This document shows, in pieces, positions 26,534-40,831 of a stretch of 64,000 nucleotides of DNA (positions are counted from its first letter, which is position 1; each line of letters opens with the position of its first letter). The position numbers and the translations under genes were made by a program. The notes beneath the pieces are model-generated. The model was not told the origin of the DNA, made no database searches, and saw nothing but the letters and a program-made list of their open reading frames with translations. Source of the DNA: an archaeon (GTDB taxonomy: Archaea; Nanobdellota; Nanobdellia; SCGC-AAA011-G17; GW2011-AR17); assembly GCA_018656555.1 (NCBI GenBank), contig JABHZQ010000025.1, positions 21,972 to 85,971 on the forward strand, read 5' to 3'.

Positions 26534-28801
26534 ATGATTGGATTTATTGTTGATGCTACCTATAGGATAATGGATGGAAGGGCTTATGTTTGTCTTTTTG
26601 GTAGATTGGAGAATGGGGAGAGTTTTTTGACTGTTAATTATATCAGGCCTTATTTCTTTATTTTGAAGAAAGATTTGAAGAAAGCCTTGAAAGTTGAGAA
26701 CTTTGAGTATGAAGAAGTGGAGTTTAAGACTTTTGATGAGCAAGAAGTTGTTAAGATTTTGTTAGATATACCTAAAGATGTTCCTGAGTTGAGGAAAGGG
26801 TTTGATGAAGAAGGAATAAAAACTTTTGAAGCGGACATTAGGTTTGTTAGAAGATTTTTGATGGATAGAGATATTCAAGGTTATGTTGATATTGATGGGG
26901 ATCATGATTACAGTGAAGGAGTAGATAGGTTTTATAGAGAACCTGAATTGAAAAAGGGAAAGGGGAAAATAGATTTGAAATTGTTTTCTATGGATATTGA
27001 GACTAATCCTAAAGCGACTAAGATTTATTCTGTTTCTATTGTTTGTGGGGATTATAAGAAAGTTTTAGTTGTTAGTGATAAGAAATTAAAAAATGCGATT
27101 AATTGTAGGAATGAAGAAGAGTTATTAGAAAAGTTTTTTACTTTACTTTATGATTTGGATCCAGATGTAATTACTGGATGGAATTTACTTGATTTTGATT
27201 TGAAGGTTATTAGAGATAGATGTAAGAAACATGAGATTGCTTTTGCTTTTGGCAAGGATAATTCTCCTTCTAGGTTGGTTATTAAGAAAGGATTTTTTGA
27301 AAGCTCTACAATGAAAGCTACTGGAAGACAGGTTATCGATGCTATGGATTTTTTGAAGAGGAGTTTTGTTAAGTTATCTGATTATAAATTAGATACTGCT
27401 GCCCAACATTTTTTAGGAGAGAAGAAATCTGTTGAGTTTAAAGATAAAGGTAAAGAAATTACTGATATGTATGAGAATGATACTCAGACTTTTGTTGATT
27501 ATAATCTTAAGGATTCTCAATTAGTTGTTGATATTTTAGATAAAAGTGGGATTTTATCTTTGACAGTTAAAAGAAGTGAGTTGACTGGGCTTTTGATGTC
27601 AGAGGTTAGTGGGAGTATTGCTTCTTTGGATTCTGTTTATTTGAAAAGGTTAAGAAAGAAAGGTTATGTTGTTTCTTCTCTTGTTTATGTTGAGAAGGAA
27701 GAAAGAATTAAAGGTGGATTTGTTATGGATCCTAAAGTTGGAATATATGATAATATTCTTGTGTTGGATTTTAAGTCTTTGTATCCTTCTTTGATGAGAA
27801 CTTTTAATATTGATCCTCTTGCTTTTGGTAAGAAAGGGATTAAGGCTCCTAATGGTGCTACTTTTTCTTTGGAAAGAAGTATTATGCCAGAGATTATTGA
27901 GGAGTTGTTGAAGGTTCGGGAAGAGTATAGGAAGAAGAAGGATGAGATTGGTAGATATGCTGTTAAGATTTTGATGAATTCTTTTTTTGGAGTTTTTGCT
28001 TCTCCTAATTGTAGGTTTTTTAATTTGGATATGGCTAATGCAATTACTTCTTTTGCACAGTTTTTTATTAAGAAGACTGCTGATGAGTTGAAGAAGAGAG
28101 GTTATGAGGTAATCTATTCTGATACAGATTCTTGTTTTGTTGTTTCTGGTGAGGAGAAGGAAGAAGATGCTGCTAAGATAGGTAAGAAATTAGAGAAAGA
28201 GATGAATGAATTTTATGATGAATTTATTAAAAAAGAGTTTAAGGTTGATAGTTATTTAGAGTTAGAGTATGAGAAATGTTATACTAAGTTTTTGATGCCT
28301 AAGTTAAGAGGGAAGGAAGGAGGAGCTAAGAAAAGGTATGCTGGTTTGGTTGATGGTAAGTTGGAGATTACTGGGATGGAAGCTGTGAGGGGGGATTGGA
28401 CTCCTTTGGCTAAAAGGTTTCAAGTGGAGTTGTTGAATAGAGTGTTTAAAGGAGAGAATGTTAAAAAGTTTGTTACTGATTTTGTTGCTAAGTTGAAAAA
28501 AGGTAAGTTTGATGATCAATTGGTTTATAGCAAGAGTATTAGGAAGCCTTTGGAGGAATATGTTAAAACTACTCCTCCCCACATTAAAGCGGCCAGGAAG
28601 TTGGATAAGTTTGAAGGTACAAGAATAAAGTATGTTATTACTTCTGAAGGTCCAGAACCTGTTGAAAGAGTTAAAGGGCATTTAGATTATACTCATTATT
28701 TGAATAAGCAAGTAAAACCTATTGCAGAATCTATTCTTGTGTTTTTTGAATTGAATTTTGATGAGTTATTGACTGGGCAGAGGGATTTATTTAGTTATTA
28801 G
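26534..28801 (+). CDS. polB: Family B DNA polymerase with intact 3'-5' exonuclease
   Basis: ExoI MDIET, ExoII GWNLLDFD, ExoIII YNLKD; Pol motifs DFKSLYPS, KILMNSFFG, YSDTDS, KKRYAG. Start moved to ATG 26534, 23 nt after TTTTATAA. Confidence 0.95.
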   Translation: MIGFIVDATYRIMDGRAYVCLFGRLENGESFLTVNYIRPYFFILKKDLKKALKVENFEYEEVEFKTFDEQEVVKILLDIPKDVPELRKGFDEEGIKTFEADIRFVRRFLMDRDIQGYVDIDGDHDYSEGVDRFYREPELKKGKGKIDLKLFSMDIETNPKATKIYSVSIVCGDYKKVLVVSDKKLKNAINCRNEEELLEKFFTLLYDLDPDVITGWNLLDFDLKVIRDRCKKHEIAFAFGKDNSPSRLVIKKGFFESSTMKATGRQVIDAMDFLKRSFVKLSDYKLDTAAQHFLGEKKSVEFKDKGKEITDMYENDTQTFVDYNLKDSQLVVDILDKSGILSLTVKRSELTGLLMSEVSGSIASLDSVYLKRLRKKGYVVSSLVYVEKEERIKGGFVMDPKVGIYDNILVLDFKSLYPSLMRTFNIDPLAFGKKGIKAPNGATFSLERSIMPEIIEELLKVREEYRKKKDEIGRYAVKILMNSFFGVFASPNCRFFNLDMANAITSFAQFFIKKTADELKKRGYEVIYSDTDSCFVVSGEEKEEDAAKIGKKLEKEMNEFYDEFIKKEFKVDSYLELEYEKCYTKFLMPKLRGKEGGAKKRYAGLVDGKLEITGMEAVRGDWTPLAKRFQVELLNRVFKGENVKKFVTDFVAKLKKGKFDDQLVYSKSIRKPLEEYVKTTPPHIKAARKLDKFEGTRIKYVITSEGPEPVERVKGHLDYTHYLNKQVKPIAESILVFFELNFDELLTGQRDLFSY

Positions 28802-28810
28802 GAGAATAAG

Positions 28811-29062
28811 ATGTTAATAGATATATTAGGATATGTTGCAGGAAGTTTAGTAGTTATTTCTTTGTTGCCACAGACAATAAAGAGTTGGAAAACTAGGTCT
28901 ACTAAGGATTTATCTTTGTGGAGGTATATTATTTATGCTATTGGTTTGATTTTATGGATAACTTATGCTGTAATTATTGGGAATGGTCCAGTTGCAGTTA
29001 TGAATAGTGTTGGATTATTATTGGCTTTGTCAATTTTGTTTTTGAAGATTAAGTATGGTTAA
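28811..29062 (+). CDS. SemiSWEET / PQ-loop family transporter
   Basis: 83 aa, 3 TM segments, LLPQTIKSWKTRSTKDLS..LWITY motif. Confidence 0.9.
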   Translation: MLIDILGYVAGSLVVISLLPQTIKSWKTRSTKDLSLWRYIIYAIGLILWITYAVIIGNGPVAVMNSVGLLLALSILFLKIKYG

Positions 29063-29688
29063 TTAATTGTTTCTAAATGGTGATTTTCTGGTTTGAATAT
29101 ATAACAATTTGCTGAATCAAAATATCCACACCTGAACTTTTCTAAAGGTATACCTGTTCTTTTGGATAGCATATATGCATAGAAGTAGACTTGTGTAGAT
29201 GCATATTTTTCTTTTGATGCGTTTGGTTTGTAATCCCAAATCCAGATTTTGTCATTTTCTATTCTAACTAAATCTATATGGCCAGTTAATGGATTTTCTG
29301 AGTTGAATAGGTTTTTGTAAGTGTCAAGTTCTTCTGGTTGTAACCATAATGGGACTTCTATTGCTATTGTATTTGTGTCATTTTCTAACATGAACATTTG
29401 AACTTTTGAATGGTTTGATTTGTATCTTTCTGAGTTTTTATCTAATCCTAGTTTTGTTAGATTACATACTTCATGATTGTTAACATCTGTTAGATTTAAT
29501 TGATTTAATGGGAATTTTAGGTGTGAAGATCTGGGTTCTACTTGGAAATAATCATTAGGACAGTTATCAAAAGTGTCATATAAGTAGGAGATAAGTTCTG
29601 GAAATGTTTCACATAGTTGTTTTGTTTTAGGTTCATGGACTCTGTAGTAGTAGAACCAGCCATGTTTGAAAGAAATTTGTTTTATCAT
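29059..29688 (-). CDS. PD-(D/E)XK nuclease family protein
   Basis: AIEVPLW..LTGHIDLVRI..WIWDYKP..TQVYFYA matches a RecB-like E..D..(D/E)YK..QxxxY core. Confidence 0.8.
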   Translation of the reverse strand: MIKQISFKHGWFYYYRVHEPKTKQLCETFPELISYLYDTFDNCPNDYFQVEPRSSHLKFPLNQLNLTDVNNHEVCNLTKLGLDKNSERYKSNHSKVQMFMLENDTNTIAIEVPLWLQPEELDTYKNLFNSENPLTGHIDLVRIENDKIWIWDYKPNASKEKYASTQVYFYAYMLSKRTGIPLEKFRCGYFDSANCYIFKPENHHLETIN

Positions 29689-29756
29689 TCTCTTTTATTG
29701 TGTTTAGAACAGAAATATTATTAAATCTTTAGGTAATTGAATAGATAGGTGATAAT

Positions 29757-30074
29757 ATGGCAGAAGATGATCAATGGGTAAATGTAAAAATACAGCAAAC
29801 AAGCGAGGGTGGGGGGATAGGGGGGCGTAAGTTAAGATGGAAGCTTTCTGCAGATAATTATGTGCCACAAACTTTTAGTCCTAATTTTAGTTCTTTAAAA
29901 TTAGCTGTTAAAGAGTTTATTAATTATTTGAAGGCAAGACCCAATATTGTGAGAGCAAGATTGGGAGATAAGAATATAGCTGAGCCAATATTGGGCTCAT
30001 TAAGTGGGTCTCAATTAGAAGAGATTAAAGAGATGCTAATTGCACATAATAATAATCCAAGGAGAGGTATGTAA
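29757..30074 (+). CDS. Hypothetical protein
   Basis: 105-aa ORF with SD-like AGGTGAT upstream; no family recognised. Confidence 0.6.
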   Translation: MAEDDQWVNVKIQQTSEGGGIGGRKLRWKLSADNYVPQTFSPNFSSLKLAVKEFINYLKARPNIVRARLGDKNIAEPILGSLSGSQLEEIKEMLIAHNNNPRRGM

Positions 30075-30078
30075 TAAA

Positions 30079-30495
30079 ATGGGAGTAAGGTTATATCCAC
30101 TAAAAAATCCTCAAATTTCTGCAGAGGAAATAAAGACATTATTTTTAGAACTTAATCCCGAATTTCTTTCTCCAAATCAAGTTGCTCCAAAGGGAGAGCG
30201 TATGTATTTTGGACCCTATAGGATAGGAATAAAAGATGTAAATCCTAGGAAATCTAGATTTGAGGTTGCTTCTGATTTGAAAGGTCTTCGTGCTGCTATT
30301 GATGTTTTGATGAACTTTGCTAGGAAGAAAAAATGGAGACTTGAATTAAGATCTGTAAATACTGCAGGACATAAGATATTATTTTTGGATTTTAGTAAGG
30401 AACTAGGTATAGGTAGGATGCTTGCACCTTCTCAATTTAATGAGTTAAGGGAATTTGTTAAAAACCATAGTCAAAATTGTGCAATTCCTGAATAA
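30079..30495 (+). CDS. Hypothetical protein
   Basis: In-frame ATG 30079 of the 30040 ORF lies 4 nt after the previous stop and downstream of GGAGAGGT. Confidence 0.6.
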   Translation: MGVRLYPLKNPQISAEEIKTLFLELNPEFLSPNQVAPKGERMYFGPYRIGIKDVNPRKSRFEVASDLKGLRAAIDVLMNFARKKKWRLELRSVNTAGHKILFLDFSKELGIGRMLAPSQFNELREFVKNHSQNCAIPE

Positions 30496-30536: not shown

Positions 30537-31538
30537 ATGGGAATTAAATTAGGGGATTTAGTTGAGAAAAAGGATGTAAAATGGGATTCTTTGCAAGGTA
30601 AGACTCTTGCTATTGATGCTTCTAATGTATTGTATCAGTTTGCTTCTTCTATAAGACAGCAAGATGGAACTCCTTTGATGAATAAAGAGGGAAAAGTTAC
30701 TTCTCATTTAGTTGGTTTGTTTTCTAGAGTTCCGAATATGGTTCAAAAGGGAATAAAGCCAGTGTTTGTTTTTGATGGAGAGCCACCACAGTTAAAAGCC
30801 TTAACTCAACAGAAGAGAAGAGAGAATAAAGATAAGGCAAAAGAGAAATATATGGAAGCTGCTGCTAAAGAGGATGAGAATTTGATGGAGTTTTACTCTA
30901 AACAATTTACTGGAATGAATCAAGAGATGTTTGATGAGGCTAAGGAGTTGTTGGAGGCAATGGGATTACCTACTGTTCAGGCTCCTTCTGAAGCTGAAGC
31001 TCAATGTGCTTATATGTGTAAGAAGAAAAAGGTTTATGCTGTAGGGAGTCAAGATTATGATACTTTGTTATTTGGAGGACCCAAACTAATACAGAATTTG
31101 ACTTTATCACAAAAAAGAAAGGTTTCTGGTGGAAGGTATGTGTTGATAGCTCCTTATTTGATTGAGTTGAAACAGGTATTAGATAGTTTAGAGTTGAATC
31201 AAGAGGAATTAATACTTTGGGCAATATTAGTTGGTACTGATTATAATCCTGGAGGAGTTAAGGGAATTGGTCCTAAGAAGGCTTTGAAGTTGATACAGTC
31301 TGGAAAGAAACCAGAATTAATATTTGATGAGCTTGAATGTAATTTTGATTGGAAAGTTATATTTGATACATTTAAACATATTCCAGTTAGTGATGTTAAT
31401 TTGAAGTTTGGAGAATTGGATGTTGATAGAATTAAAGAGATTTTGATTGAGAGGCATGATTTTACAGAGACTAGAGTGGATAATGTTTTAGAGAAATTAC
31501 AGAAGAAGGAAAAAGAGAGTTTGAAGAAGTGGTTCTAA
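30537..31538 (+). CDS. fen: Flap endonuclease 1
   Basis: LAIDASNVLYQF, VFVFDGEPP, APSEAEAQCA, SQDYDTLLFG, GTDYNPGGVKGIGPKKA, PIP-like C-terminus ESLKKWF. Confidence 0.97.
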   Translation: MGIKLGDLVEKKDVKWDSLQGKTLAIDASNVLYQFASSIRQQDGTPLMNKEGKVTSHLVGLFSRVPNMVQKGIKPVFVFDGEPPQLKALTQQKRRENKDKAKEKYMEAAAKEDENLMEFYSKQFTGMNQEMFDEAKELLEAMGLPTVQAPSEAEAQCAYMCKKKKVYAVGSQDYDTLLFGGPKLIQNLTLSQKRKVSGGRYVLIAPYLIELKQVLDSLELNQEELILWAILVGTDYNPGGVKGIGPKKALKLIQSGKKPELIFDELECNFDWKVIFDTFKHIPVSDVNLKFGELDVDRIKEILIERHDFTETRVDNVLEKLQKKEKESLKKWF

Positions 31539-31540
31539 CA

Positions 31541-31582
31541 CAAACTCTTTCAGAGTTTGATCAGAGGAGAGGGCTGAAGCCC
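31541..31582. other. Two adjacent hairpins after fen (possible terminator or protein-binding site)
   Basis: CAAACTCT-TTC-AGAGTTTG (31541-31559) and GGGC-TGAA-GCCC (31571-31582). Confidence 0.45.
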
Positions 31583-31600
31583 AATAGTTTTATAAGGAAA
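31579..31600 (+). repeat. 22-bp direct repeat copy 1, contains the TATA box of the downstream gene
   Basis: GCCCAATAGTTTTATAAGGAAA, identical at 31963-31984. Confidence 0.9.
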
Positions 31601-31619
31601 GTTTGGTTTGTATTATTCT

Positions 31620-31943
31620 ATGGTTCATGAAACTCATGTTTTACATCATCATCATAAGAATAGAAGAAAGAAATCTAAATCTAAATTAATTTATTATGTT
31701 GATAAGTTAGTTTATGCGGGTGGTATTTTTGGTTGGATTATGACTCTGCCCCAAGTTTTAAAAATATGGGTGAATCAAAATGCAAGTGGTGTTTCTTTTT
31801 TATCTTGGCTTTCGTATACTCTTCTAGGTGCTTTGTGGATATTTTACGGGATTTTACATAAAGACAGAAGGCTTATTGTGGTTTATTCTGGGTTTGTAGT
31901 ATTGAATGCTTTGGTTGTTATTGGAACTTTAATTTATGGGTAA
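31620..31943 (+). CDS. SemiSWEET / PQ-loop family transporter (second, divergent paralog)
   Basis: TLPQVLKIWVNQNASGVSFLSW..LWIFYG; ATG 31620 is 24 nt after TTTTATAA. Confidence 0.85.
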   Translation: MVHETHVLHHHHKNRRKKSKSKLIYYVDKLVYAGGIFGWIMTLPQVLKIWVNQNASGVSFLSWLSYTLLGALWIFYGILHKDRRLIVVYSGFVVLNALVVIGTLIYG

Positions 31944-31962
31944 AAGGTATTTTATATATTTG

Positions 31963-31984
31963 GCCCAATAGTTTTATAAGGAAA
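31963..31984 (+). repeat. 22-bp direct repeat copy 2, contains the TATA box of the downstream gene
   Basis: GCCCAATAGTTTTATAAGGAAA; runs into AATGTTAGTTTTTT (31983-31996), which recurs at 32789-32802. Confidence 0.9.
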
Positions 31985-32002
31985 TGTTAGTTTTTTGTTC
32001 TT

Positions 32003-32785
32003 ATGGAAGATAGGATTAGAAAGATCTGTGAAAATCTTGAAAAGGAAAAGAAAATTAAGATTCTTTTTGCTGTAGAGAATGGGAGTAGGGCCTGGGGGAT
32101 GGATAGTTTAGATAGTGATTTTGATGTTAGGTTTGTTTTTTTTAGACCCCTTAAAGAATATATTCAAATTAATAATCCCACTGATGTCATTACTATTGCT
32201 TTTGATAAGGATGGAAATTCTTGTCAGGTAGAGGGTTCTTATATTGATATGTCTGGTTTTGATGTTTTTAAGTATGTTAGGATGTTATCTTCTTCAAATC
32301 CTACAACTATTGAATGGTTGATGAGTCCTATTGTTTATCATGGAGAGCAGAATAAGACTTTTAAGGAATTTGCTATAAATAATTTTAATCCTATTGCTTT
32401 GTATCATCATTATAAATCTATGTGTAGGAATAATTATGTTAAGTATCTTAAATCTGGGAGTTTTGTAACTTATAAAAAATATCTTTATGCATATAGGGGT
32501 TTAATTAATGCAAAATGGGTAGTTCATAAGAAGTCTCTTCCTCCAATAGTTTTTCTTGATACATTAAATGAAATGGAAGAAATAATTCCTGGGAAAATAT
32601 TAAAAAAACTTAAGGAGATAATAAAATTAAAATCTTCTGGAGAGGAAAAGGATATAATTCAAAATATTGTGGAAATGGATGATTATATTGAAGGGTTTCT
32701 TAAAGATAATTCTGAAGCCCCAACTGAGAAATCCCATTCTACTGTGAATGACTTAAATGAAGAATTGAGAAGGATAATTTTATAA
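32003..32785 (+). CDS. Pol-beta superfamily nucleotidyltransferase, YcgL/RlaP-like
   Basis: FAVENGSRAWG..DSDFDVRF (cf. ESGSRAWG..DSDYDVRF), EWLMSPIVY, YKKYLYAYR. Confidence 0.85.
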   Translation: MEDRIRKICENLEKEKKIKILFAVENGSRAWGMDSLDSDFDVRFVFFRPLKEYIQINNPTDVITIAFDKDGNSCQVEGSYIDMSGFDVFKYVRMLSSSNPTTIEWLMSPIVYHGEQNKTFKEFAINNFNPIALYHHYKSMCRNNYVKYLKSGSFVTYKKYLYAYRGLINAKWVVHKKSLPPIVFLDTLNEMEEIIPGKILKKLKEIIKLKSSGEEKDIIQNIVEMDDYIEGFLKDNSEAPTEKSHSTVNDLNEELRRIIL

Positions 32786-32808
32786 ATTAATGTTAGTTTT
32801 TTCTTATT

Positions 32809-33531
32809 ATGGTAGCATATGATGTTATTGGAGATATTTTGATTGTTGGAGAGGATGTTACTAATGAGAAATGTGAAGAATTATTAGAGAAGAAAAATAT
32901 TAATGTGGTTCTTAGGAAGAAAGGGATTCACCATGGAGAGTTTAGAACTCAGGATATGGAAGTTGTTTGTGGTGAGAAGAGGAAGGAGACTTTGTATAAA
33001 GAGAATGGGGTTCAGTTGAAGTTGGATGTGGAGAAGTGCTATTTTTCTCCTAGGTTGGGTACTGAGAGAATGAGGATTGCTTCTTTGGTTAAGGAAGGAG
33101 AGAAGGTTTTGGTATTGTTTTCTGGAGTTGGTCCTTATTGTATTGTGTTGGCAAAGAATACAGAAGCTGTTAAGATTGTAGGTGTTGAGAAGAATAAGGT
33201 TGCTCATGATTATGCTGTTTGGAATTGTAGAAAATATCCTTATGTTAAGTTGTTTAATGAAGATGCTAAGGATTTTAGTTTTGATGAAAAGTTTGATAGG
33301 GTGTTGATGCCTTTGCCAAAGAGTGCAGAGGATTTCTTAGATGTTGCTTTAAAATGTGTTAAGAAGAAAGGAATTGTACATTTTTATGATTTTTTACATG
33401 AGAATGATATTCCTGATGTTGCTTTGGAGAAAATTAAGAGTAAGTGTAAATGTAAGGTGTTAGATGTTGTTAAGTGTGGGCAGTATTCTCCTGGAAAGTT
33501 TAGGATTTGTGTTGATTTTCAGGTTTTATAA
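32809..33531 (+). CDS. trm5: tRNA m1G37 methyltransferase, Trm5/Met-10+ family (short form)
   Basis: YDVIGDI, ETLYKENG, YFSPRLGTER, LFSGVGPY, RVLMPLPKSA, GIVHFY. Confidence 0.85.
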   Translation: MVAYDVIGDILIVGEDVTNEKCEELLEKKNINVVLRKKGIHHGEFRTQDMEVVCGEKRKETLYKENGVQLKLDVEKCYFSPRLGTERMRIASLVKEGEKVLVLFSGVGPYCIVLAKNTEAVKIVGVEKNKVAHDYAVWNCRKYPYVKLFNEDAKDFSFDEKFDRVLMPLPKSAEDFLDVALKCVKKKGIVHFYDFLHENDIPDVALEKIKSKCKCKVLDVVKCGQYSPGKFRICVDFQVL

Positions 33532-33569
33532 TATAAAATTTTATAAAGTAAATTTTATTTTTATTTTTT

Positions 33570-34514
33570 ATGGCAGATAAGGGAGATATATTTGTTTCTT
33601 ATGATGCAATGGATGCATTATGGAGAAATAGTATGATTAGGATGTTTGGAGAAAATGTACCTGTAGATTTTACTGGTGCAAGGTATGAAGGAATTTATCC
33701 TGGTTATGGAGAGGAAATTGCTGCTTATGTTGAAGCCCAATCTAATAAGAGGGTCTATGCTTTAAAACAGATAGGCTTTTCTTCAGAAGATAGAGTTATT
33801 GATTTTGGATGTGGTTGGGGTAATATGTTAAATGAAGTTGAAAATTGGGGTGGTAGAGCTATTGGGTTGTCTCTTTCACCTGCTCAAGTTGCTTATTGTC
33901 AAGAGATGGGTTTGGATGCGAGGTTGATGGATTGGAATGATTATCGTCCAGATAGACAATTTGATGGGGCTGTTTCTATTGGTGCTTTTGAACATTTTTG
34001 TTCTATTGATGCATTTAGGGCTGGAAGACAAATGGAAGTTTATCATAAATTTTTTGAATTGGTACATGATTGTTTAAAACCCCAAAGGGGTTTTTATTTA
34101 CAAACTATGATTTTTGGAGGAAAGGGAGTTCCGGATTTAGATGTAGATATTGATCCAAGAGCTCCAATGAATTCACCTAGAAGAATAATTGCACAGTGGA
34201 AAGCTTATTTTCCTGGTTCTTATTTACCTCATAATGAAGAACAGATTGTTGAAGCTGCTTCTGATTTTTTTGATTTGACTAGGAGTGAAGATGGTAGGGA
34301 AGATTATGTTGAAACTGCAAGAGTCTGGTTAGAAGCTATTAATGCTCCTGGTGGATTGGAAAAATGGTTAGAATGGGCTACATTTGCATTTAAGGGTTTA
34401 GGTAGAGATGAACTTTTAACTAGATTACAATCAGTAAGAGAAGATGCTTTTTCAAGAGGGTTTGCTTATGATATTATAGGCCATAGAAGGTTAACTTTTG
34501 TTAGGAAGGATTAA
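33570..34514 (+). CDS. Cyclopropane-fatty-acyl-phospholipid synthase / mycolic-acid-methyltransferase-like SAM methyltransferase
   Basis: EAQ..K, IDFGCGWG, GLSLSPAQ, VSIGAFEHF, YFPGSYLP, DYVETARVW. Confidence 0.82.
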   Translation: MADKGDIFVSYDAMDALWRNSMIRMFGENVPVDFTGARYEGIYPGYGEEIAAYVEAQSNKRVYALKQIGFSSEDRVIDFGCGWGNMLNEVENWGGRAIGLSLSPAQVAYCQEMGLDARLMDWNDYRPDRQFDGAVSIGAFEHFCSIDAFRAGRQMEVYHKFFELVHDCLKPQRGFYLQTMIFGGKGVPDLDVDIDPRAPMNSPRRIIAQWKAYFPGSYLPHNEEQIVEAASDFFDLTRSEDGREDYVETARVWLEAINAPGGLEKWLEWATFAFKGLGRDELLTRLQSVREDAFSRGFAYDIIGHRRLTFVRKD

Positions 34515-39988: not shown

Positions 39989-40831
39989 ATGATTGAGAAC
40001 CATATTAAGACTGTAATTTTATTGGGGGTATTAACTGGTGTTTTTTTGGGAGTGGGATATTTATTGGGATCAAATACTGGGTTAGCTTTTGGTTTAGCTT
40101 TTGCTGTTTTGATTAATTTTGGTGCTTATTTCTTTTCAGATAAGATTGTTTTAGCTATGTATAGAGCTAAAGAGGTTAAAGAGAAGGATAATCCTGAATT
40201 ATATAGAATTGTTAAGGAAGTTGTGCATTTGGCTCAAATTCCAATGCCTAAGTTGTATATTGTAAATAGTGCAAATCCTAATGCTTTTGCTACTGGAAGA
40301 AATCCAAAGAATAGTGCTGTTGCTGTGACCACTGGGATTTTGGATCTATTAGATAATAGTGAGTTGAAGGGAGTTATAGCTCATGAGCTTTCTCATATTA
40401 AGAATAGAGATATTCTTGTTTCAACTATTGCAGCTACAATTGCAGGTGTTATTTCTTATGTAGGTATGTTTGCAAGATGGGGTGCTATTTTTGGTGGGGG
40501 CGATAATAATAACAATAATATAGTTAGTTTGTTGGTATTAGGGATAATTACTCCAATAATGGCAGTTATTATTCAGTTGGCTATTTCAAGAACTAGAGAG
40601 TATATGGCTGATGAGAGTGCTGCTAAGATTTTGCATAGTCCTAATGGTTTGATTGGAGCTTTGGAGAAATTACATAATGGTGCTAAAAGACATCCTTTGA
40701 AGTTTGGTTCTAAAGCTGGTGCTTCTTTGTTTATTGTTAACCCTTTTTCTGCTAAGGGGTTTTTTTCTTGGTTGAGTACTCATCCACCTATGAATAAAAG
40801 AATTGAAAGATTGAAAGATCTTAATTTCTAA
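39989..40831 (+). CDS. htpX: Zinc metalloprotease HtpX (M48)
   Basis: PNAFATGRNP, AVTTG, GVIAHELSH, SRTREYMAD, STHPP. Start moved to ATG 39989, 22 nt after a TATA-like box. Confidence 0.95.
   Translation: MIENHIKTVILLGVLTGVFLGVGYLLGSNTGLAFGLAFAVLINFGAYFFSDKIVLAMYRAKEVKEKDNPELYRIVKEVVHLAQIPMPKLYIVNSANPNAFATGRNPKNSAVAVTTGILDLLDNSELKGVIAHELSHIKNRDILVSTIAATIAGVISYVGMFARWGAIFGGGDNNNNNIVSLLVLGIITPIMAVIIQLAISRTREYMADESAAKILHSPNGLIGALEKLHNGAKRHPLKFGSKAGASLFIVNPFSAKGFFSWLSTHPPMNKRIERLKDLNF

Follow-up and report, generated by a model that had tools for sequence, protein, structure and literature searches.

Gene-insertion hot spots and flexible genomic islets between core genes are known from bacterial pangenome studies, and typical target-site duplications are shorter than 22-54 bp. 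Here we analyse one core-gene interval: in a tiny uncultivated Woesearchaeota-type archaeon, two single genes, encoding a SemiSWEET and an RlaP-family nucleotidyltransferase, sit between the core genes fen and trm5 within a 64-kb stretch at 33% G+C (contig JABHZQ010000025.1; the window, meaning the whole stretch that was analysed). The closest named relatives of this organism are Woesearchaeota metagenome-assembled genomes, and contigs identical to the window were found in Saanich Inlet metagenomes. That a promoter can be captured through microhomology-mediated duplication or deletion was demonstrated experimentally in Escherichia coli (Li & Bock 2019, PMC6614815), and unrelated genes are widely found behind reused promoters (Nijveen, Matus-Garcia & van Passel 2012, PMC3575422). 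In integrons, including the archaeal ones, single-gene units are stacked one way at one site and their content varies among close relatives; their attC sites are recognised as imperfect inverted repeats with RYYYAAC...GTTRRRY cores, at least 2 of them within 4 kb (Ghaly et al. 2022, PMC9668308). A preliminary description of the window had proposed that single genes entered the locus one after another at the trm5 promoter, duplicating it each time, as an integron-like outcome with no integrase in view. Our analysis shows that the locus is a real case of promoter capture at an insertion hot spot, not a new integron-like system, and reveals no new class of mobile element.

SemiSWEET, RlaP and trm5 are each preceded by a predicted promoter, named P1, P2 and P3 respectively (Table 1). 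As first described, positions 31579-31600 and 31963-31984 both read GCCCAATAGTTTTATAAGGAAA, an exact 22-bp repeat around SemiSWEET; a search of the window that tolerates 3 mismatches gives only these 2 matches, while shuffled sequences are expected to hold 0. The repeat around RlaP was likewise found at the reported 22/25 identity (31972-31996, TTTTATAAGGAAATGTTAGTTTTTT, versus 32778-32802, TTTTATAAATTAATGTTAGTTTTTT), and a repeat search extends it to 42 nt (83%); counted over the full unit, the match is 33/39. The TATA box TTTTATAA does end, as claimed, 24 nt before the ATG of SemiSWEET and 23 nt before those of RlaP and trm5; since 23 nt is the commonest TATA-ATG spacing in the window (10/23 TATA-bearing promoters), this spacing is the genome norm and not peculiar to the three genes.

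The similarity of these promoters was compared with that among 27 TATA-bearing promoters of the window, giving 351 pairs, by exact words and by identity over 51 nt. The longest exact word, 22 nt, is that of P1-P2, followed by words of 15, 14 (P2-P3) and 12 nt; the 15-nt word joins the PolB and CMAS promoters, a non-adjacent pair, and is pure extended-TATA consensus. By 51-nt identity, P2-P3 ranks first (38), P3-P4 is tied second (34) and P1-P2 comes fourth (33), P4 being the promoter of the CMAS-like gene downstream of trm5. The P3-P4 similarity (34/51) was not taken as a sign of common descent, given the T-richness of these sequences and the 15-mer that PolB and CMAS promoters have in common through consensus alone. 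The proposal had been staked on random promoters not matching as often, and they do not: the P1-P2 word is the longest of all pairs and shuffling accounts for none. In a test covering the window and other AT-rich loci, with every sampled locus centred on fen, adjacent same-strand genes share a word of at least 14 nt in 3/121 pairs versus 1/1968 among non-adjacent genes (Fisher p=7e-4), and the five most similar adjacent promoter pairs all fall inside the fen-trm5 interval. Near-identical promoters (22/22 and 33/39) beyond the consensus level thus lie upstream of non-homologous genes, which is the mark of promoter capture.

Relatives were found via FEN homologues, and genes and promoters were compared as sequence around their fen loci (Table 1, which also gives the labels used below). 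Contigs of the window's own species all have the window's gene order. Among the other genomes we observed both of the arrangements that serial insertion had been predicted to leave, namely an empty site with one promoter copy (L095/L096) and sites with different cargo: orf110 in L093, orf339 in L104 (in the order fen-SemiSWEET-orf339-trm5), and membrane proteins in L016-L018 and L035. A conserved gene order with unrelated promoters, the outcome named beforehand as contrary to the proposal, was not seen, the sites being empty, half-filled or differently filled. SemiSWEET is missing from L095, L097, L014, L094 and L093. The fen-trm5 junction is an insertion hot spot conserved across Woesearchaeota, and its cargo differs between lineages. 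In the distant Woesearchaeon L018 (FEN 48%), a 118-codon membrane-protein gene within this interval (L018 2940-3400, minus strand) is flanked by the exact 22-mer TTTATAAAAATAGTTTTCTTAA; it supplies the third of the 3/121 word-sharing adjacent pairs and is an independent case of the same architecture.

The closest relatives allow the promoters to be followed base by base. The L095 spacer reads ...AAACTTTTTCAAAGTTTGATCAAAGGAGTAAAGTCCACTAACTTTATAAGTAATTATTAGTTTTTTCTTTGTATGG-trm5, and in alignment its single promoter is collinear on the left with window P1 and on the right with P3; P2 has both halves. In the sister species, represented by L013 and by L112 (a 357-kb scaffold) and by a Logan contig of 21.7 kb that shows no difference from L013 (same stretch, same species), SemiSWEET lies inside a repeat of 54 nt at 85%, the first 41 nt of which match at 38/41, and which spans from TTTCA(A/G)AGTTTGATCAAAGGAGAGG in the fen 3' flank to beyond the TATA box. 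P2 equals the L112 trm5 promoter through ATGG, one indel apart. Besides, the sole trm5 promoter of L112 (4354-4392, 39 nt) matches both 31968-32006 and 32774-32812 of the window by blastn; one L112 promoter therefore maps to P2 and P3, and the window has RlaP plus a second 39-nt copy, that is, a promoter duplicated around RlaP. The single-copy progenitor arrangement is seen in the L095 spacer and in the L112 trm5 promoter. The end of L013 had been considered as an 'RlaP promoter' and was rejected, as L112 shows it to be the trm5 promoter of a species without RlaP. In L093 the RlaP promoter reads GCCCAATAGGTTTATAAGTAAATGTTAGTTTTTTCTTAGTATGG.

Homologues of RlaP number in the hundreds among Woesearchaeota and Nanoarchaeota (DPANN archaea), with identities of 60-78%. 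The initial label of accessory gene is misplaced for RlaP, a widespread gene that was relocated and is not rare. The 107-codon SemiSWEET (SemiSWEET-107) is rare, with 15 homologues found. In other genomes RlaP homologues adjoin a 2'-5' RNA ligase gene or PGK and have unrelated promoters, so that the P2/P3 promoter is local and was not imported with RlaP. The left junction of RlaP is the start codon, ATG(G): homologues begin with MK, and the window and L093 copies begin with ME after ATGG. At the other end, homologues finish in R-[KR]-I-[IV]-L plus 1-4 residues, whereas the window copy ends in RRIIL with its stop inside TTTTATAA, and its last codons, ATA ATT TTA TAA, are the TATA box of P3. The promoter sequence ATAGTTTTATAA, read in frame, encodes I-V-L-stop, which would place the right junction in a ~9-12-nt identity of gene end and TATA box, within the ATA(G/A)TTTTA common to the conserved C-terminal codons and the box.

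For SemiSWEET, homology to the copies of L101 and L104 starts at 31602, 1 base after the 22-mer, and ends with TAAATTT; the left junction lies in or beside the TATA box and the right one at TTT. Junctions other than the right one of RlaP show only 3-8 nt of identity, and all breakpoints given here are putative. The retro-insertion of a leaderless mRNA was rejected, as the SemiSWEET segment includes ~16-18 nt upstream of the predicted start site. At third codon positions SemiSWEET is more alike between lineages than fen is (identity 0.74 vs 0.55 to L101, and 0.93 vs 0.81 to L013), which suggests that the gene, of 107 codons only, was exchanged laterally and more recently between co-occurring Woesearchaeota lineages. 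Its Pfam scores are weak but above threshold, at 25.3 bits for PF03083 (MtN3_slv; cut-off 23.7 bits) and 23.9 bits for PF04193 (PQ-loop; cut-off 22 bits), and by these matches it is assigned a predicted single PQ-loop triple-helix-bundle domain. SemiSWEET-107 homologues (67-78%) also stand directly after fen in L100-L106 (e.g. L104 2972-6279), where FEN is just 63% identical.

Altogether, we regard microhomology-mediated duplicative insertion at a long-standing hot spot as the probable, and best, explanation of the locus. Two promoterless ORF-sized (open reading frame) segments, RlaP and SemiSWEET, would have been inserted, in the lineage of the window, into one short promoter upstream of trm5, the right end of each joining the chromosome upstream of its left-end joint; the intervening stretch is then copied and becomes a duplication. 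In the RlaP event, 39 nt from TATA box to ATGG would have been copied, and in the SemiSWEET event 22 nt in the window and 41-54 nt in the sister species, there from the fen 3' flank to just beyond the TATA box. The pathway may have been template switching or break repair using short identities at the junctions, and junctions in such identities are the signature of microhomology-mediated illegitimate recombination, not of a dedicated recombinase. The locus would end up with one promoter in three tandem copies, each lying 23-24 nt ahead of an ATG, and the resident essential trm5 would keep its TATA box. In a genome of almost no spacer DNA, selection would retain just those insertions that leave the newcomer and trm5 each with a TATA box, and such selection would account for the recurrence of the pattern. 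From the spacing alone, the mRNAs starting at P1-P3 are probably leaderless, P1, P2 and P3 being predicted to drive SemiSWEET, RlaP and trm5 respectively; words of the locus were not found in three metatranscriptome runs of the same study.

The direct repeats would later permit precise loss by homologous recombination, and such loss would explain why relatives without RlaP (L112) or without both genes (L095) keep one intact promoter. Accordingly spacer-only and SemiSWEET-only genomes look like products of recombination between promoter repeats. The suggestion that the repeats allow excision fits these relatives, as read on a single-gene tree; no excised allele or circle was found in the assembled contigs. 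The proposed serial insertion of single genes with duplication of the local promoter is supported by the empty (L095), SemiSWEET-only (L112) and other-cargo (L093) relatives.

Promoter capture and reuse as described elsewhere share with this locus the same short promoter before non-homologous genes, a local duplication, candidate microhomology junctions and a newcomer without its own promoter. In contrast to those systems, the present one arose in nature, in a DPANN archaeon whose promoters are of the TATA type and whose mRNAs are probably leaderless; the duplicated stretches bracket an insert cut exactly to its ORF, and the promoter of the resident gene is saved as well; and at least 2 serial events took place at one site, of which empty, half-filled and filled alleles survive in relatives. 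As in gene-insertion hot spots and islets, a fixed core-gene interval has lineage-specific cargo and neighbouring intervals vary too, but here the units are single ORFs, replaced or gained at exact ORF boundaries in a highly compact genome, with visible promoter duplications and with no mobile-element genes or tRNA targets at the locus. Direct repeats flank inserted DNA as they do with transposon and casposon target-site duplications and att repeats; the duplications here, however, are 22, 39 and 41-54 nt and vary in length between events, and the window scan gave no terminal inverted repeats, transposase, Cas1, integrase or tRNA target. The comparison with integrons holds for the outcome only, since their defining features are absent: there is no IntI gene among the scanned window ORFs and no attC hairpin site in 31400-33700, the boundaries are direct promoter repeats with no evidence of site-specific recombination, and SemiSWEET, RlaP and trm5 each have a TTTTATAA (a predicted promoter) to themselves instead of one shared Pc.

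DPANN genomes are tiny and tightly packed, and how genes enter them without breaking their neighbours is poorly understood. The relatives provide a natural allele series, from abutting genes through an empty one-promoter site to one insert and two inserts, in which one sees base by base that an ORF can enter behind an existing TATA box, a further promoter copy being left to the resident gene, and that these repeats can afterwards serve for clean deletion. The series offers a concrete model, open to testing, of how genes come and go in leaderless archaeal genomes with little spacer DNA.

The direction of events depends on the FEN tree, (L097, ((window, L013), (L093, (P0003, L095)))) with L014 and L094 outside and supports of 95-100%. 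Spacer or cargo is present throughout the clade (window, L013) + (L093, (P0003, L095)), and the genes abut in the outgroups L014, L094 and L097, so that abutting fen and trm5 are likely the ancestral state. Since these outgroups have no promoter between the two genes, the 'trm5 promoter' is itself derived. Several points weigh against duplicative insertion. We infer the direction of events by parsimony on the tree of one gene. The window and L093 have RlaP, whereas L112 and L095/P0003 do not; either the gene was gained once and lost precisely twice, or it was gained twice at exactly one base. Its divergence (74% over 74 residues) resembles that of FEN and favours one old gain followed by losses. 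P1 and P2 are identical at 22/22 in the window versus 38/41 in L112, which requires gene conversion or constraint. SemiSWEET could be ancestral with many losses, or targeted to the site, given its adjacency to fen in L100-L106. Neighbouring promoters show no general tendency to resemble each other more than others do (Mann-Whitney p=0.92), the effect being limited to the fen-trm5 interval in our sample. Finally, no joint skipping either gene, and no circle, was found in the contigs of six metagenome runs (X1-X4, X7, X8), a weak counter-argument; eight runs were searched (X1-X4 for the window's population and four for the sister species, of which X9 and X11 miss the site), as assembled contigs, in which rare variants are suppressed.

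The sequence just after the fen stop bears on the question of a dedicated machinery. It is a double-hairpin motif of ~45 nt, CACAAACTCTTTCAGAGTTTGATCAGAGGAGAG plus a GC hairpin (31536-31584), the right end of which overlaps the first promoter repeat copy. Logan contigs of 4 runs break at the motif (31543/31568); an insertion polymorphism was considered for these breaks and rejected, as they come from the dispersed motif. The 31-mers of the motif core reach 2-3x the depth of the flanks, and the motif forms the end of three contigs of equal depth; by these two signs, k-mer depth and contig ends, the window's genome has at least 3 copies. Other copies follow the mcm stop in L098 (2449-2500; 35/36, with flanking DNA only 84% identical) and lie in an intergenic region of the low-abundance relative L099 (2474-2522, minus strand; 43/43). 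The motif is more conserved between species than the flanking coding DNA (the 35/36 vs 84% of L098), and its first stem covaries from C-G to T-A in L095 and L112. No Rfam match was found at the motif or in 31400-32100, and a covariance model gave no further copies in 27 sources, the motif being absent from L093, L101 and L104. Directly beside one copy is a stretch that matches exactly the final 26 nt of the L099 RNase P RNA (1962-1987), as recovered from Logan contigs of X1-X4 and X7 with loose ends at window 31536 and L013 7401. In an L013-type genome, one contig has two motif copies ~795 nt apart in direct orientation.

In a rival reading, a dedicated system moves single-ORF cassettes by site-specific recombination at the promoter core or at the double hairpin, with its recombinase encoded elsewhere in the genome; it would be functionally analogous to integrons, except that every cassette gains a promoter of its own. 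We consider this unlikely. It would account for the occurrence of RlaP at an identical position (ATGG behind GCCCAATAG...AATGTTAGTTTTTT) in the window and L093, which are non-sister lineages, and for SemiSWEET after fen in two distant lineages with synonymous sites less diverged than those of fen (the third-position values above). The motif beside the insertion point is multi-copy and better conserved than coding DNA, a partial copy lies inside the L112 duplication, and the paired direct copies of the L013-type contig fit as well. However, the duplication boundaries vary between events and fall off the motif, one of them starting in a hairpin loop; the RlaP and L018 duplications do not contain the motif, and it is absent from L093, L101 and L104 though cargo is there. 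Moreover, Pfam detected no integrase, transposase or recombinase in 30 window ORFs or in the precomputed +/-6 kb neighbour annotations, in agreement with the earlier remark that no integrase is in view; those ORFs and neighbours are the extent of the integrase scan. No attC-like core pair (RYYYAAC...GTTRRRY) was found on either strand of 31400-33700, the inter-gene repeats being direct, a repeat search found no inverted repeats bounding the inserts, and Pfam gave no Cas1 in the window. The contigs of the six metagenome runs held neither circles nor empty alleles. It is equally doubtful that an integrase-independent or unrecognised Woesearchaeota mechanism lets ORFs enter and leave at promoters with the motif and/or a TATA-proximal core as its site; if true, entry itself would supply every cassette with a copy of the resident promoter, from which it is expressed as a leaderless mRNA, and SemiSWEET-like cassettes would circulate among co-occurring species.

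Slightly less likely still is that no insertion took place in this lineage, the order fen-SemiSWEET-X-trm5 being ancestral (as in L101/L104), the 'empty' relatives being deletions and the promoter identity a product of gene conversion. This would agree with the fen-SemiSWEET adjacency in a lineage with FEN 63% identical, with the homogenisation suggested by 22/22 in the window vs 38/41 in L112, and with the ease with which direct repeats are deleted. On the other hand, all nearer relatives (L097, L093, L095, P0003, L014, L094) are without SemiSWEET, three of them with genes that abut or overlap scarlessly, and the FEN tree nests the SemiSWEET-bearing lineages within empty-site lineages. The L112 repeat includes ~25 nt of non-promoter fen 3' flank that promoter conversion does not explain; by its synonymous sites SemiSWEET is younger than the DNA on either side, and RlaP lies elsewhere in other Woesearchaeota. 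Very improbable, finally, is that the promoters are alike without duplication, through a strong genome consensus or a shared operator for one transcription factor: promoters here are indeed stereotyped (TTTATAA ~23 nt before ATG), the non-adjacent PolB and CMAS promoters match over 15 nt, spacers resembling AATTTGTTTTTT are seen again at fen and at 39989, and TTAGTTTTTTCTT is kept across species, so that the element is constrained, but the 22-mer contains the non-consensus GCCCAATAG, the L112 repeat takes in part of the fen 3' flank, a single L112 promoter aligns with two of the window, RlaP homologues elsewhere have unrelated promoters, adjacent promoters are in general no more alike than others, and the comparison of filled with empty sites contradicts it.

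Table 1. Features of the fen-trm5 locus in the window, and state of the same interval in relatives (identity of FEN to that of the window in brackets).
Feature	Position	Strand	Description
fen (flap endonuclease 1), core gene at left edge of slot	30537..31538	+	Pfam XPG_N + XPG_I; synteny kept in all relatives
Double-hairpin motif right after fen stop	31536..31584	+	AAACTCT-TTC-AGAGTTT, GATCAGAGGAGAG, GGGC-TGAA-GCCC; dispersed repeat
P1, promoter repeat copy 1, ahead of SemiSWEET	31579..31600	+	TATA box TTTTATAA at 31588-31595
Inserted SemiSWEET segment	31602..31946	+	18-nt TATA-less leader, 107-codon ORF 31620-31943, stop context TAAA
P2, ahead of RlaP	31963..32006	+	22-nt repeat copy 2 (31963-31984) + 39-nt unit ATAGTTTTATAAGGAAATGTTAGTTTTTTGTTCTTATGG (31968-32006)
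RlaP-family nucleotidyltransferase	32003..32785	+	Pfam PF10127, E=1.4e-53; located exactly at trm5 start codon
P3, second copy of 39-nt promoter unit, ahead of trm5	32774..32812	+	TATA 32778-32785; 33/39 vs P2
trm5 (tRNA m1G37 methyltransferase family), core gene at right edge of slot	32809..33531	+	Pfam TRM5-TYW2_MTfase; orthologues abut fen in L014, L094, L097
CMAS-like S-adenosylmethionine (SAM) methyltransferase in next variable slot (trm5-ftsJ)	33570..34514	+	Pfam CMAS; promoter is P4
L014 (FEN 76%), L094 (70%), L097 (81%)	fen-trm5		genes abut or overlap; no spacer, no promoter
L095/L096 (FEN 80%)	fen-trm5		75-nt spacer, one promoter copy
P0003 contig (FEN 81%)	fen-trm5		104-nt spacer
L112, L013, 21.7-kb Logan contig (FEN 97%)	fen-trm5		SemiSWEET only, inside 54-nt repeat
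L093 (FEN 81%)	fen-trm5		orf110 + RlaP
L016, L017, L018, L035, L104 (FEN 48-63%)	fen-trm5		unrelated cargo, either strand

The PolB-PDDEXK, PDDEXK-fen and trm5-ftsJ intervals likewise hold differing single genes. Such differences, which fall within the PolB-DUF87 core block, occur even between the window and L112, whose fen DNA is 92% identical, and homology resumes at ORF boundaries (stop codons). In the first interval, the window has a second SemiSWEET (28759-29069), where L112 has a NUMOD3 protein and a cupin (349-1670); in the second, orf105 and orf138 (29710-30490) face orf177 (L112 2316-2879); and in the third, the CMAS-like methyltransferase (33528-34510) faces a KTI12-like gene on the other strand (L112 5108-5624). 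The trm5-ftsJ slot is empty in L014 and L097, and holds a GNAT gene in the P0003 contig and the opposite-strand KTI12-like gene in L095/L112. The second SemiSWEET (83 aa, 28811-29062) starts 10 nt downstream of PolB behind a Shine-Dalgarno-like AGGAG and lacks a TATA box. Its identity to SemiSWEET-107 is just 30%, and it is missing from L014, L094, L093 and L112.

The conserved C-terminus of trm5 (FQVL-stop, GTTTTATAA; 33517-33569) forms a TATA-like box 13 nt ahead of the TATA box of the CMAS-like gene, a parallel to the C-terminal codons of RlaP that make the trm5 TATA box. In L112 and L013, the promoter of orf177 (L112 2300-2360) is nearly identical to the fen promoter of L093 (5960-6003), GGAAATGTTTATAA(A/G)GTTTTATT..., and orf177 starts with the same ATGGGAAT as fen, while fen itself has a different promoter in L112 and L013 (L112 2885-2930); here too a promoter may have been taken over, in this case at the start of fen.

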